Assembly: GCA_963555825.3 (NCBI GenBank)
Contig: CAUVXB020000001.1
Coordinates: 1,888,001 to 1,952,000, forward strand
Length of the DNA: 64,000 nt
Origin: Alphaproteobacteria bacterium
Lineage (GTDB): Bacteria; Pseudomonadota; Alphaproteobacteria; JAAXGF01
Direction of reading: 5' to 3'
Shown: one piece after another, positions 39,634-43,708 of the stretch
How the letters are laid out: the number at the start of each line of letters is the position of its first letter
Position numbering within the stretch: the stretch's first letter is position 1
Translations under genes and position numbers: made by a program
The notes under the pieces: generated by a model
The model's database searches: none
Seen by the model: the letters and a program-made list of their open reading frames with translations, nothing else
What the model was told of the DNA's origin: nothing

Positions 39634-40989
39634 ATGGATATTCGCAACGACGAGCCGACACTTGTCGACCAATTGCGCCGAAAGTCCCTGGTCTCCCAGG
39701 TCGGCCGCGCGGCCGCGATCTGTTCCCCGCCGCAGGTGCTGGGGGTGCATGGCGACTGGGGGCTCGGCAAGACGAGCTTCCTGCAGCAGGTGCAGTACTA
39801 TCTGAGTGGAATCTGCGCCGCCCAGAGCAAACAAGAGCTGGCGAATGCGAGGAACAACGCTCCGCGCATTGATCTCAATCTTCGAGACCGCACCACCGTC
39901 GTCTGGTTCGAGGCATGGCGCTATCAACACGAAGAGAACCCGATCGTCGCCCTGCTCCACGAGATGCGGGGGCAGCTCGAATGGGCGGCCAAGCTCAAAC
40001 GCGGGATCCGCAAAACCGCAGAAGTAGCGTTCCTTGGCACACTAATGTCCATGGAGTCAGTGACCAAGAAAATCGGCCTTCAGGCATCCAAAGTCCGTGA
40101 GGAAGGGGAGCGCTGGGAGCGCGAGAACCTGGCGGTCAGCTTGCCCGCCCACACGATCCGGACGCTCTTGACCGAAGTGATCGGGCAATTGATCGGCCGG
40201 GAGGGTCGGGGTCCAGCCCGGAAACGCCGCCTCGTCGTGATCATCGACGACCTGGACCGCTGCGAGCCGGCAGCCATCGACCGGCTGCTGGAGGGCCTCA
40301 AGCTGTATCTCAGCATCGAGAATTGCGTCTTCATCCTCGGCATGGACCAACGCCAGGTCATCCGAGCCATCGCCGCCATGCAGCCGGAATCCCAGGAAAA
40401 CCAGGACCGCTTGCGTTGGGCTGCGGATTACTTGGAGAAGCTTTGCCAGAACGTCTGGCGGTTGCCGAGCATCGCCGACCCGAAGGACTTCCTTTGCCGG
40501 AAGTTGCCGGCGGGGTCGTTACGCGACAGGGTTGACACGGCGATCGGCGATATCAGGTGCCTGCCGGGTAACCCGCGTCGGCTCACGGGGCTCGCCAACC
40601 TGGTACTACGGCTGGACGGGCGGCAAGGCCCCGAAGGGGATCATATCTACCAGACCCGTCTCATGCTTATCGTTGCCTATGTCTACCAGTTCCATCCCGA
40701 TCTTTATGTACGCTGGCGATACGACCCGGATTTCTTTGAGCTCATTCTGGATTGGGTGAAGGGCACAGGCCAACGTACCGGGCCCTTGGAGAACCTGATA
40801 AGACCGGACAATTACATCGCCGAAGACGAGACACCCACACCGAGGGGCGCCACCGAGGAGGTGCGAAAATTGTATCCGGACCCGTCGGCGAGCAACGTCT
40901 TCTGGATTCAGCGCCTGATCGTCGCAATTATCAAGGACGTCCAATGGGAGCACTTCAAGCCCTACTTCTCCGAACCGGAAGAGAAGTGA
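39634..40989 (+). CDS. KAP-family P-loop NTPase
   Basis: Walker A GVHGDWGLGKTS, WFEAWRY, Walker B VVIIDDLDRC, YLEKL, GNPRRL. Confidence 0.9.
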   Translation: MDIRNDEPTLVDQLRRKSLVSQVGRAAAICSPPQVLGVHGDWGLGKTSFLQQVQYYLSGICAAQSKQELANARNNAPRIDLNLRDRTTVVWFEAWRYQHEENPIVALLHEMRGQLEWAAKLKRGIRKTAEVAFLGTLMSMESVTKKIGLQASKVREEGERWERENLAVSLPAHTIRTLLTEVIGQLIGREGRGPARKRRLVVIIDDLDRCEPAAIDRLLEGLKLYLSIENCVFILGMDQRQVIRAIAAMQPESQENQDRLRWAADYLEKLCQNVWRLPSIADPKDFLCRKLPAGSLRDRVDTAIGDIRCLPGNPRRLTGLANLVLRLDGRQGPEGDHIYQTRLMLIVAYVYQFHPDLYVRWRYDPDFFELILDWVKGTGQRTGPLENLIRPDNYIAEDETPTPRGATEEVRKLYPDPSASNVFWIQRLIVAIIKDVQWEHFKPYFSEPEEK

Positions 40990-41146
40990 CCCTAGGCAAT
41001 TGCCAGGCCCCATCGAGCGTGCCGTCTTCCCCCCATGAGCACCCCCGGGGGCGATGGCACGCTTGTGGGCGAGTCGGCCGGGGAAGACCGCCCCGCCCCG
41101 GATTCTCTCCTTCCCCGCGGTCGATGGCGGAGGGACTCAGGGTTCC

Positions 41147-43708
41147 ATGAGCCACGACGACTTCCAGGACCCGTACCAAGACCCGACGTTGGCGGCGTAT
41201 CTGTCGAACGTGATCGACTGGCATGGCTACATCCGCTTCCTGGGCCTCCCCCATCTCCGCGACAACCCGGACATCCGCATCGACCGGCTTTACGTGGAGC
41301 CCAGGCTGGCCGAGCGCCACATCTCCCCCGACTCCGATCCCGACGAGTGGCCTGAAACCCGAACGCTGCACCAGGCGCTGACGGAGCGTCCATCGCTGGT
41401 GGTCCTCGGCGACCCCGGAAGCGGCAAGTCGACGCTCGTGAGTTGGCTCGCCTGGCGCTTCGCCCATGGGCCGGAGAGCGCGTGGACGGAGACGTTCGGG
41501 CGGTTGGTGCCAGTGCCGTTGGTGCTGCGCGAGCTTGAGATCGGCGCGGGGATCGATTGGCGCGGGTTGTGGGCGGCCTTTCTCGACCATGAGATGGCCA
41601 CTCCCCTTCGCAATGCGGGCAACGTCGAAGGGTTCTTGGAGCGCGGCCAAGCGTTGATCCTGTTCGACGGGATCGACGAGATCGGCGGCATTGCAGTTCG
41701 GAAGGCGCTCATGGCGGCGATCCGGGAGGGGGTCGACCTGTATCCGGAGTGCCGATGGCTGTTGACATCGCGGCTTGTCGGCTATGCCGAGGCGCCCCTC
41801 CATCTATTCGACGATGACCGGGAGAATGTCATGCGGGAGGCCGACCTTGGAGACTCGATTTTTGTGTCGAGTCCGGCCGCCGCCTGGTACGTCGCCCCCT
41901 TCACCGACGCCCAGATCGACCACTTCGCCCGCAACTGGTACGCCCAGCGCGAAGCGGCGCCGAAGGTGGCAGCGGAGCAATCGCAAGCCCTGGTGGGCGC
42001 CATCGGCGATGCCACCGCGACGCGACGGCTCGCACGGGTGCCCAACCTGTTGACGATGATGGCGCTGATCTTCCGGGTGCGGGCGCGGCTACCGCACGGG
42101 CGGGCTCTCCTCTACGACGAGATCTGCGAGGCCTACCTGGAATCCATCGATGAGTTCCGGGGTGTCGACCGCCTCGACTATCCCCTTGTGGAGAAAAAAC
42201 GCTGGCTCGCTGCCGTCGGCCTGCGACTGCAACAGCGCCGGGCGGAGCAACAGCAGAACGACGACGAACCGAGGGAAACGCGCGAAATTCTCGTCGAAGG
42301 GTCCGATGTCAAAGCCTGGATCGGCGGGGCCATGGAAAACTCGGGCTATCCCGGCGACGAGGCCGACGCCGCGAAGTTCGTCGACTACATCGGCCGGCGG
42401 AGCGGCCTGCTCCTCCCCCGAGGCGCCGACACCTTCGCGTTCATGCACCTGTCTTTCCAGGAATACTTCGCCGCCTGCGCCCTGGAAGACTCGGTGACTT
42501 CGCCCGGATGGCTGCGCAAGGGCGAGACTGCCGACGGTATTACGAAGGCCACCCTCCAGGCGTGGACGCGCGACACGAAATGGCGGGAAACCTTCATATT
42601 CCTGTTCGAACGCCTGGCGAGCCGCCGCGAGTGGGTGGAAGCCTTGTCCGAAGACCTGTTCGGCGCCGACTTCGAGAACTTGGTGCCTGAAAATGAGAAT
42701 GCCTACTCGGTCGCCGTCCTCGTGACTCTGCTTACAGTCAATCCGCATTCAGGGTTCACGCAGGCGATGCGGGAGGCAGCGATCGAGAAGAGCATCATCG
42801 CCGAGGTGGCCGAGCAGCAAAGGCTGGTTCGGGACAGAGGCAAAGGCGGAAGCTTATTCTGGCAAGCGGTTTCCATTGTCCGAAACGGGTTTTCCACCGA
42901 CTACGAGTGGAGGACGAAGGTTCCGGAACTCATCGCGAACGCGGCCGATGGTGCCGAAGTGTTGGCTCTTGATGGCGCGAGCGGCGTCAAGGATATCTGT
43001 TTTCTTGCTCGCATTTCGACGTTGAAGTCGCTTTCTCTCGACGATACGGCCGTTTCGGATCTGGGGCCGCTCGCTGGGCTGACAAGATTGAAGGTGCTCT
43101 ATCTGAGCCGCACGGCCATTTCGGATCTGGGGCCGCTCGCTGGGTTGACCGGATTGCAGCGGCTCTATCTGGACGGCACGGCCGTTTTGGATCTGGGGCC
43201 GCTCGCTGGGCTGACCGGATTGCAGGTCCTCGACTTCAACGACACCGGCGTTTCGGATCTGGGGCCGCTCGCTGGGCTGACCAAATTGCTAAACCTCGGC
43301 TTAGACAGCACAGACGTTTCGGATGTGGGGCCGCTCGCTGGGCTGACCAAATTGGGGCGCCTCAGGCTCGGCAACACCGGCGTTTCGGATCTGCGGCCGC
43401 TTGCTGGGCTGACCGGATTGTGGAGCCTCAGCCTCGACAACACGGGCGTTTCAGATTTGGGGCCGCTCGCTGGGCTGACCGAATTGTGGAACCTCAGCCT
43501 CGCGAACACTGGCGTTTCGGATCTGAGGCCACTCGCTGGGCTGACCGGATTGCAGCACCTCGACCTCGACAACACCGGCGTTTCCGACCTAAGCCCGTTG
43601 CTACGCCTAGAACGATTGGAATCCTTGTCCCTCCGAAGCACCAACGCCCCCCCCGAGCAAGTCGCAGCCCTTCAAAAATCCGTAGAGATTGACGGTCTCG
43701 GCGCCTAA
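41147..43708 (+). CDS. NACHT NTPase with C-terminal leucine-rich repeats (bacterial NLR-like)
   Basis: Walker A GDPGSGKST, Walker B LILFDGIDE, LTSR, PNLL, winged-helix FMHLSFQEYFAA, then nine 22-aa LRRs. Confidence 0.92.
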   Translation: MSHDDFQDPYQDPTLAAYLSNVIDWHGYIRFLGLPHLRDNPDIRIDRLYVEPRLAERHISPDSDPDEWPETRTLHQALTERPSLVVLGDPGSGKSTLVSWLAWRFAHGPESAWTETFGRLVPVPLVLRELEIGAGIDWRGLWAAFLDHEMATPLRNAGNVEGFLERGQALILFDGIDEIGGIAVRKALMAAIREGVDLYPECRWLLTSRLVGYAEAPLHLFDDDRENVMREADLGDSIFVSSPAAAWYVAPFTDAQIDHFARNWYAQREAAPKVAAEQSQALVGAIGDATATRRLARVPNLLTMMALIFRVRARLPHGRALLYDEICEAYLESIDEFRGVDRLDYPLVEKKRWLAAVGLRLQQRRAEQQQNDDEPRETREILVEGSDVKAWIGGAMENSGYPGDEADAAKFVDYIGRRSGLLLPRGADTFAFMHLSFQEYFAACALEDSVTSPGWLRKGETADGITKATLQAWTRDTKWRETFIFLFERLASRREWVEALSEDLFGADFENLVPENENAYSVAVLVTLLTVNPHSGFTQAMREAAIEKSIIAEVAEQQRLVRDRGKGGSLFWQAVSIVRNGFSTDYEWRTKVPELIANAADGAEVLALDGASGVKDICFLARISTLKSLSLDDTAVSDLGPLAGLTRLKVLYLSRTAISDLGPLAGLTGLQRLYLDGTAVLDLGPLAGLTGLQVLDFNDTGVSDLGPLAGLTKLLNLGLDSTDVSDVGPLAGLTKLGRLRLGNTGVSDLRPLAGLTGLWSLSLDNTGVSDLGPLAGLTELWNLSLANTGVSDLRPLAGLTGLQHLDLDNTGVSDLSPLLRLERLESLSLRSTNAPPEQVAALQKSVEIDGLGA
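43022..43615 (+). repeat. Nine 66-bp tandem repeats encoding LRRs
   Basis: Core GTTTCGGATCTGGGGCCGCTCGCTGGGCTGAC recurs every 66 nt. Confidence 0.95.

Follow-up and report, generated by a model that had tools for sequence, protein, structure and literature searches.

Do two neighbouring genes beside aroQ in an alphaproteobacterial genome form a single immune module and, if so, which of the two products senses and which acts? The window that we analysed is the whole stretch of 64,000 nucleotides at positions 1,888,001 to 1,952,000 of contig CAUVXB020000001.1 (assembly GCA_963555825.3, Alphaproteobacteria bacterium). Within it, one gene encodes a KAP-family P-loop nucleoside triphosphatase (NTPase) at 39634-40989 on the + strand, and the next (41147-43708, + strand) encodes an 853-residue protein that joins a NACHT module to leucine-rich repeats (LRRs), a layout like that of the animal receptors with nucleotide-binding domains and leucine-rich repeats (NLRs). 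An earlier description made from the DNA letters and their translations, which we call the sequence-only reading, had proposed that an effector-less NLR-like sensor signals through the KAP NTPase. Both open reading frames (ORFs) are intact, co-oriented and separated by a 157-nt spacer (40990-41146, + strand), just as that reading described. We find that the two genes make up a widespread, unnamed two-gene module, and on balance we lean towards viewing it as a mobile anti-phage (conflict) module of the bacterial NLR-like kind (signal transduction ATPases with numerous domains, STAND), with KAP as an output in trans.

Conservation of the gene pair

A scan of species-representative genomes with an alignment of the KAP protein gave 80 loci, and in 79 of them a NACHT ORF lies directly downstream on the same strand; in the single exception (L079), the contig edge falls inside the KAP gene. 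The reverse scan, with the NACHT protein as query against metagenome contigs, likewise gave 80 loci, of which 59 could be assessed. KAP is directly upstream in 51 of these, seven encode an N-terminal extension of at least 135 residues and have no KAP, and one has an N-terminal HTH_3 domain and no KAP; the other loci run into a contig end (9), lack sufficient upstream DNA (1), or are fragments or members of a distant NACHT (outgroup) clade scoring below 240 bits (11). Every NACHT member with a short N-terminus thus has KAP beside it (51 of 51). All four viral contigs with KAP (IMG/VR) also encode the NACHT-LRR protein. Homologues of the two genes are thus adjacent in 79/80, 51/59 and 4/4 loci, and the linkage is obligate.

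The junctions between the two genes are tight. A 4-nt overlap is possible in 68 of 130 junctions and 115 of the 130 fall within 20 nt on either side of exact abutment, which is an operon signature; the KAP gene would normally be translationally coupled to the NACHT-LRR gene. The 157-nt spacer of the window is atypical, as just two of the 130 junctions elsewhere have 100 nt or more, one of them being 158 nt (L157); the locus L021 has a 1.4-kb gap between KAP and NACHT. Pairwise identities of the KAP proteins follow those of their NACHT partners closely (r=0.93 over 97 pairs), with none of 300 permutations reaching so high a value. No third conserved gene accompanies the pair, the commonest neighbour family occurring in 9 of 80 loci, mostly in syntenic relatives. 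Three members whose C-terminus has no Pfam LRR match (L083, L131 and L137) nevertheless keep KAP, so that the partnership tracks the NACHT module rather than the LRRs. Together, KAP and NACHT-LRR almost certainly constitute one functional module.

By the labels of their records, the loci found with KAP come from many phyla and groups, among them Binatia, Planctomycetota, Gamma- and Betaproteobacteria, Acidobacteriota, Spirochaetia, Hydrogenedentota, Verrucomicrobiota, Actinomycetota, Abditibacteriaceae, Desulfobacterales and Myxococcales. Among organisms in culture, the hosts of the pair are, for example, Haloferula, Pseudoduganella, Undibacterium and Pseudomonas putida QH1.

The KAP NTPase

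Translation of the first gene from the ATG at 39634 gives 451 residues, with a GTG at 39607 as an in-frame alternative start. Its earlier identification as a KAP P-loop NTPase is confirmed by Pfam, in which KAP_NTPase (PF07693) matches at E=1e-26, with 94.3 bits against a cut-off of 20. The Walker A motif GDWGLGKTS (39751-39777, + strand) is invariant in 26 aligned homologues, and residues D214, D215, D217, R218 and C219 of the Walker B motif VVIIDDLDRC (40234-40263, + strand) are invariant in the same alignment. WFEAWRYQ and NPRRLTGLANL are further motifs. Near the C-terminus, YPDP..NVFWIQ (40873-40911, + strand) has P424, D425, P426, W433 and Q435 invariant and adjoins a low-confidence loop in the AlphaFold2 model, and we infer that it is a candidate docking motif.

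Transmembrane helices inserted in the NTPase domain are common in the KAP family, though not universal. In the window protein, no hydrophobic stretch of 20 residues was seen by eye, without the use of a transmembrane predictor, and the AlphaFold2 model (predicted local distance difference test, pLDDT, 78) has long, soluble-looking helices at residues 112-196. The KAP protein is thus predicted to be soluble, with no obvious transmembrane segment. The solved folds closest to the model are those of RdrA from the RADAR system (8hr8, 8fnu and 8fnt; E=1e-5 to 2e-4, TMq 0.41-0.47), with BrxC as the next best. At the sequence level the likeness to RdrA is marginal (8fnu, E=0.0014).

Among the PADLOC models, KAP matches PDC-S20 (8.7e-25), QatA (1.1e-21) and PifA (2.3e-10), in each case over the NTPase core only; the PDC-S20 match places KAP residues 10-258 on positions 8-237 of 464, and these are hits to single models, taken apart from the PADLOC system rules. 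In NCBIfam, KAP reaches 93 bits for QatA, whose cut-off is 600, and the EruA and DS8 matches are marginal. When 1.84 billion representatives at 50% identity were searched exhaustively by profile, 510 KAP representatives emerged at E≤1e-30, and 851 proteins score at E≤1e-3. The best 150 representatives are all 208-548 residues long. No fused KAP-NACHT form was seen at E≤1e-20 among longer KAP relatives (806-2300 residues), which is weak evidence.

One metagenome locus (L156:3192-5972) holds a 926-residue KAP ORF in which the KAP part begins at residue 464 and the N-terminal 469 residues have no Pfam match; it is either a true N-terminal extension or an over-extended ORF.

The NACHT-LRR protein

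The start of the second gene is the ATG at 41147, where a database record of the same protein (853 residues) also begins; an in-frame ATG upstream, at 41054, would give an ORF of 884 residues. The protein has a short conserved N-terminus followed by a nucleotide-binding domain, helical and winged-helix domains and about 11 LRRs. Its Walker A motif GDPGSGKST (41408-41434, + strand) covers residues 119-127 of the 884-residue ORF, and its Walker B motif LILFDGIDEIG (41654-41686, + strand) covers residues 201-211 of that ORF. The residues of both motifs are invariant in 26 homologues, so that both NTPases of the pair have intact Walker A and B motifs. DGIDE fits the D[GAS]hDE form given as the Walker B signature of NACHT in the available text of Kibby et al. 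(bioRxiv 10.1101/2022.07.19.500537). The winged-helix motif FMHLSFQEYFAA lies at 42440-42475 on the + strand, and its conserved histidine, H434 (numbering of the 853-residue protein), is invariant. Substitutions of the corresponding histidine make NLRC4, bNACHT25 and bNACHT16 hyperactive, according to Kibby et al. The Pfam NACHT match (PF05729) of the window protein is marginal, at 28.1 bits against a cut-off of 26.7, while homologues score 32.8-46.3 bits. By motif, Pfam and fold, the second gene is a member of the NACHT clade within the STAND NTPases. For the NACHT region, its family numbers 1254 proteins at E≤1e-3 among 8000 scored, the top 120 being 42-54% identical.

The sequence-only reading had noted about 85 residues ahead of Walker A and no effector domain, and both points stand: the stretch is 87 residues long and has no Pfam domain. 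It is conserved and lies within the family profile of fused and unfused members alike. Pfam detects no effector domain in the NACHT-LRR protein, and no CARD, PYD or BIR domain is present. PADLOC gives no meaningful match for this protein, with no Avs model at E≤0.01.

The same reading compared the protein to animal NLRs, and at the level of the fold this is upheld. The AlphaFold2 model (pLDDT 84, predicted TM-score 0.77) has as its best Foldseek matches autoinhibited NLRC4 (4kxf, E=2.5e-21), NOD2, NLRP3 and NLRP9, over about 1000 aligned columns. The comparison fails for the LRRs, which are of the internalin/Roco type. The LRR domain (42962-43642, + strand) has nine units spaced perfectly at 22 residues, together with flanking units, and its best superpositions on internalin A and a Roco LRR are at 1.4-1.8 Å. 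Pfam LRR_4 matches in six stretches (E=2.9e-31), the DNA is periodic at 66 bp (8.2 copies, 78% matches, 43046-43584), and the NCBIfam internalin matches of the protein stem from these repeats. The 22-residue internalin/Roco type argues for a NACHT-LRR fusion independent of that in animal NLRs.

Several members of the family (L083, L131/L133, L137 and L144) end in about 350-400 residues that Pfam does not recognise as LRRs and that may form a different, so far undescribed sensor domain; KAP is kept in the three such loci open to assessment. In one DNA run (X10), a CC insertion stands behind 43646, about 20 codons ahead of the NACHT-LRR stop; it is seen in one contig at a depth of about 11 and may be a strain variant or an error.

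NACHT family members without KAP

The NACHT family members that have no KAP gene are informative as to which part of the system gives the output. The DISPLACEMENT pattern is consistent, as all eight bear N-terminal additions. These are a caspase-type Peptidase_C14 domain (L090), DUF4062 (L098 and L100), a calcineurin-like phosphoesterase, Metallophos (L108, L117 and L123), HTH_3 (L146), and an extension of unassigned type that is cut by the contig end (L107).

In a FastTree phylogeny built from 133 NACHT modules, with one distant sequence (L164) as its root, the KAP-less variants nest inside the KAP-linked clade at three supported places. The sister of the caspase-bearing L090 is the KAP-linked L022 (support 0.977), that of the two DUF4062 variants together is L104 (0.989), and that of the Metallophos group is L043 (0.927); the tree does not resolve the HTH_3 variant. 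Since the fused variants nest within the KAP-linked clade, the KAP linkage looks ancestral and appears to have been lost at least three times, each time alongside the gain of an effector in cis.

Mobility and defence context

The pair is horizontally mobile: it occurs in many phyla, it was not found in relatives of the host, its GC content is lower than that of the neighbouring core, and insertion sequences (ISs) are its neighbours. A search of 60 relatives of the host genome, of which 12 belong to its family, gave no KAP. The lower GC reported earlier is borne out by values of 0.60-0.67 across the pair, compared with 0.69-0.71 in the downstream aroQ-accC core. Three of the viral contigs (41-46 kb) carry the pair between an integrase and genes for a CI-like repressor, CII and a primase, and the fourth carries it after P2 GpU, GpD and Rz. 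Such positions, between integrase and cI or at the end of a P2-type tail region, are where temperate phages carry accessory and defence cargo. The abstract of PMC9122126 offers a comparison for phage cargo positions.

Of the 139 ORFs that lie closest to the pair in the genome loci, 106 were scanned with PADLOC. Restriction-modification (R-M) is represented by a type I restriction endonuclease (2.8e-203), two type III restriction endonucleases and a type III methyltransferase, and other matches are DrmA of DISARM (3e-267), DpdF of Dpd (1e-267), IetA, PsyrT, PbeA and PDC-M38A. Type III R-M genes lie downstream of the pair in 8-9 of the 80 loci and an MmeI-like gene in 3. The idea that the homologues sit in defence islands is thus supported to the extent that R-M, DISARM and Dpd genes and prophage slots occur near the pair, although the count has no matched control to set it against.

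Relation to known systems

As the sequence-only reading anticipated, the pair could not be matched to a named system. Neither PADLOC nor NCBIfam has a name for the combination, the NCBIfam scores lying far under their cut-offs, and a KAP plus NACHT-LRR operon is undescribed in the literature searched, which did not extend to the supplements of Kibby et al. and PMC13581612, where the clade may be listed.

The nearest relatives of the second gene in a known defence context are the bNACHT proteins, which share with it a NACHT module with D[GAS]hDE and a C-terminal repeat sensor (10.1101/2022.07.19.500537). In the available text of that study, bNACHTs are anti-phage, their N-terminus is the place where effectors are attached, and bNACHT16 bears LRRs; the proteins are described as single genes with their own effector, and the word 'KAP' does not occur there. 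The window protein differs in having a bare N-terminus and a KAP gene as obligate upstream partner. Older surveys, in the part available, state that bacterial NLR-like proteins lack LRRs (10.1101/2020.01.06.895854). The family described here is large, has the complete NACHT-LRR layout and is tied strictly to a KAP NTPase that has a gene of its own.

STAND sensor logic is also shared with Avs/AVAST and with the proteins of the 2026 STAND survey (PMC13581612), the main text of which, as far as available, reports many anti-phage STAND clades and contains neither 'KAP' nor 'LRR'. Avs proteins, unlike the window protein, have N-terminal effectors and sensors of the tetratricopeptide-repeat type, and no Avs model matches here. 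With NLRC4, NOD2 and NLRP3 the window protein has in common the order nucleotide-binding domain, helical domain, winged-helix domain, helical domain and LRRs. Sequence identity to animal NLRs is just 14-17%, however, the LRRs are of a different type, there is no CARD, PYD or BIR, and the partner is a KAP NTPase rather than a second NLR. NAIP-NLRC4 and the window pair would have in common that one NTPase senses and passes its signal to another. Plant sensor-helper NLRs are similar sensor-to-helper pairs.

On the KAP side, the RADAR system would resemble the window pair, to judge from the structural model, in being a two-gene module with a ring-forming KAP ATPase. RdrA is about 800-900 residues long, whereas the window KAP has 451, and the partner is a NACHT-LRR protein instead of an RdrB-like deaminase. 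PifA, QatA, PDC-S20 and the EF_KAP-type fusions described in the available text of 10.1101/2025.10.07.681051 share the KAP P-loop core (PF07693), but the window has no QatBCD, its KAP has no evident transmembrane helices, and there is no fused C-terminal 'unknown' domain. The neighbours of the pair are IS elements and aroQ rather than Qat genes, and the QatA score stays below its cut-off.

The conflict systems built on effector-associated domains (EADs), or Death-like domains, offer a further comparison. According to the available text of Kaur et al. 2021 (PMC8195603), a KAP ATPase may displace the central STAND NTPase in such systems, and TIR, calcineurin and caspase effectors are listed among their components. 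The same effector classes are fused to sister NACHT-LRRs of the window family. The arrangement differs in that KAP replaces STAND in EAD systems, while here KAP and NACHT are separate, strictly linked genes, and Pfam detects no EAD adaptor.

Possible function of the pair

The evidence above makes it probable that the pair is a defence or conflict system. If so, the NACHT-LRR protein would be a sensor switch whose internalin-type LRRs bind a ligand derived from, or modified by, an invader. Binding would release an NLRC4-like autoinhibited state, allowing the NACHT module to bind NTP and oligomerise, and the assembly would then recruit or switch on the upstream-encoded, RdrA-like oligomerising KAP ATPase, which would give the output in trans, perhaps through runaway ATP hydrolysis, an action on the membrane or a hand-on to a host factor. 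That an effector-less NLR might signal through KAP fits the loss of KAP in those members that have gained an N-terminal effector. We regard the assignment of the output arm to KAP as having slightly less than an even chance of being right. The full reading, a split NLR relay in which an effector-less NACHT-LRR receptor passes its signal to a ring-forming KAP executioner, the two belonging to different NTPase clades, is tentative, and we would not call it probable. It would entail that the relay has repeatedly been short-circuited, a caspase, DUF4062 or phosphoesterase being fused to the receptor and KAP discarded.

Several observations weigh against this interpretation. Besides its NTPase, neither protein shows any effector domain that would be recognised as toxic or enzymatic, so that it is the displacement pattern by itself that assigns the output to KAP. 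In RADAR, the one solved KAP system among the fold matches, the KAP ATPase RdrA stands beside a separate effector, RdrB, and the likeness to RADAR would rather make KAP a sensor or regulator. The displacement pattern has its own weak points: the tree has a single distant root and several deep nodes with low support, the upstream DNA of L107 and L117 is too short to exclude a KAP gene farther away, and that of L090 and L108 extends for just about 1 kb. As to the setting, 33 of the 139 flanking ORFs fall outside the uncontrolled count of defence neighbours. A KAP homologue was found neither on 72,556 plasmids at E≤1e-20 nor in 50,697 deposited phage genomes at E≤1e-10, suggesting that mobility is not by way of well-sampled elements. 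In the window itself, the 157-nt spacer and an IS ending 63 nt before the KAP start may mean that the native regulation of the pair is disturbed. Complex prediction from alignments of KAP 16-458 and NACHT 1-550, with the LRR part excluded by the 1000-residue limit, gave an ipSAE of 0.00 twice, with the controls not folded, and counts neither for nor against contact between the two proteins.

The most serious competitor keeps the immune function and changes the roles, with KAP acting upstream or in parallel as co-sensor, loader or regulator of the NACHT-LRR protein and the output coming from NTP consumption by the NACHT oligomer or from an effector encoded elsewhere in the host or island. It would account for the lack of an effector domain in either protein, and the nearest folds to KAP, RdrA and BrxC, serve multi-protein systems as partner ATPases and not as killers. 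A pair elsewhere in the same genome (described below), in which KAP is joined by an LRR-only protein, points the same way, suggesting that the NTPase switch of an LRR sensor can be KAP itself. A regulator should, however, have been kept beside the effector-fused relatives, where KAP is present in none of eight, and no conserved third gene supplies the effector; we think such an exchange of roles unlikely. More doubtful still is a non-immune function, whether as a STAND pair for signal transduction or regulation or as a eukaryote-like LRR protein for interaction with an animal host. DNA near-identical to this region occurs in runs labelled sponge metagenome, the LRRs resemble internalins, and one member (L146) has an N-terminal helix-turn-helix (HTH), which is also carried by STAND NTPases that regulate transcription. 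Yet the fold is that of a cytosolic NLR with no secretion signal noted, and the family is found in free-living lineages of soil, sediment and wastewater and in prophage accessory slots. Its distribution is patchy (0 of 60 host relatives), and the caspase, DUF4062 and calcineurin-like domains of its sister variants are typical of conflict systems, going by the available text of PMC8195603. We consider a non-immune role improbable.

It could also be argued that two independent single-gene systems, a KAP protein like PDC-S20 and an NLR like bNACHT, merely sit side by side in an island. KAP proteins act alone elsewhere (10.1101/2025.10.07.681051, in the part available), bNACHT01 is described as 'not in an operon' in the available text of Kibby et al. 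(bioRxiv 10.1101/2022.07.19.500537), and KAP has partial PADLOC matches to PDC-S20. Chance neighbours would hardly preserve order, strand and junction in 79/80, 51/59 and 4/4 loci, allow a 4-nt overlap in 68 of 130 junctions and diverge together (r=0.93), and this KAP subfamily never occurs without a NACHT gene where the contig permitted a look. Conserved pairing, junctions and co-divergence exclude this explanation, to which we give next to no weight.

If the KAP and NACHT-LRR pair is a defence system, a common, unannotated module can be added to the defence catalogues. It would offer a clean genetic system for NLR-to-partner signalling in trans, and a defined upstream activator for the KAP NTPases, the mechanism of which is largely unknown. 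Should the split relay prove true, KAP NTPases could themselves be effectors of death or arrest. The repeated replacement of KAP by effectors in cis is a natural experiment on which part gives the output.

A second KAP-LRR pair in the same genome

Contig 2 of the same genome encodes a different KAP NTPase of 436 residues, 30% identical to the window KAP (L005:6692-8970, - strand). It is directly followed, and overlapped, by an LRR-only protein of 343 residues that has no NACHT module and whose LRRs share 49% identity with the LRRs of the window NACHT-LRR protein. We considered that this might be a frameshifted fusion; the LRR frame, in its upstream part, gives arginine-rich sequence as expected out of frame, and we treat the pair as two genes. 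A search of 400 further genomes from the phylum did not find this second KAP at E≤1e-30. The arrangement suggests a wider KAP-LRR partnership.

Genomic setting of the window pair

The position of the pair, upstream of aroQ and behind IS elements, is as originally described. The first core gene on its 3' side is aroQ, encoding a type II dehydroquinase (43999-44454, + strand; Pfam DHquinase_II, 2e-56), and accC is next. Two abutting ISs lie upstream. An IS256/Mutator-family element (about 38207-39571, + strand; transposase 38296-39540) has its 3' end 63 nt ahead of the KAP start, and it abuts an IS5/IS1182-like element (36407-38207, - strand; DDE transposase 36548-38158) whose terminal inverted repeats of 18 nt are perfect. 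In the DNA runs, the depth of the IS256-like element exceeds that of the flanking DNA about 100-fold and its ends are sites of contig breaks, implying that it is present in high copy in the source population. Among the loose ends are further IS256-like copies that run into the same inverted-repeat sequence.

In two metatranscriptome libraries, contigs cover pieces of both genes, one of them spanning the spacer (40959-41206), at a depth of 2-4, similar to that of aroQ. Carry-over of DNA could produce such contigs, from which a transcript is not demonstrable; we do not count them as expression, and the parts left uncovered carry no meaning. A promoter scan gave two promoter-like sites against 0.8 expected and a terminator scan found none between the two genes, both results being uninformative.

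Upstream of the IS elements, several genes occupy a lower-GC stretch at 30788-36701. They include a gene resembling repressors with an S24 peptidase and an HTH (30788-31486), a methyltransferase (32050-32991) whose match to a recombinase-like HTH is weak and falls below the cut-off, a 570-residue protein of the nitroreductase family (33125-34837, - strand), a protein of the metallo-beta-lactamase fold and two ORFs with no Pfam matches. Given these genes, the low-GC island may be larger than the KAP and NACHT-LRR pair.

Farther downstream, at 49575-53201 (+ strand), is a 1208-residue ORF for a class II ribonucleotide reductase, the barrel domain of which is matched in two stretches. Its residues 296-364 have a weak match, below the cut-off, to a TACO1/YebC_N-like domain and may be an insertion in the enzyme.

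DNA near-identical to 39500-43800 (share of words 0.71-0.99) was found in 18 runs. All 20 holders of such DNA come from seven studies, sponge metagenome being the label of some of the runs, and the host probably recurs in communities of that kind.

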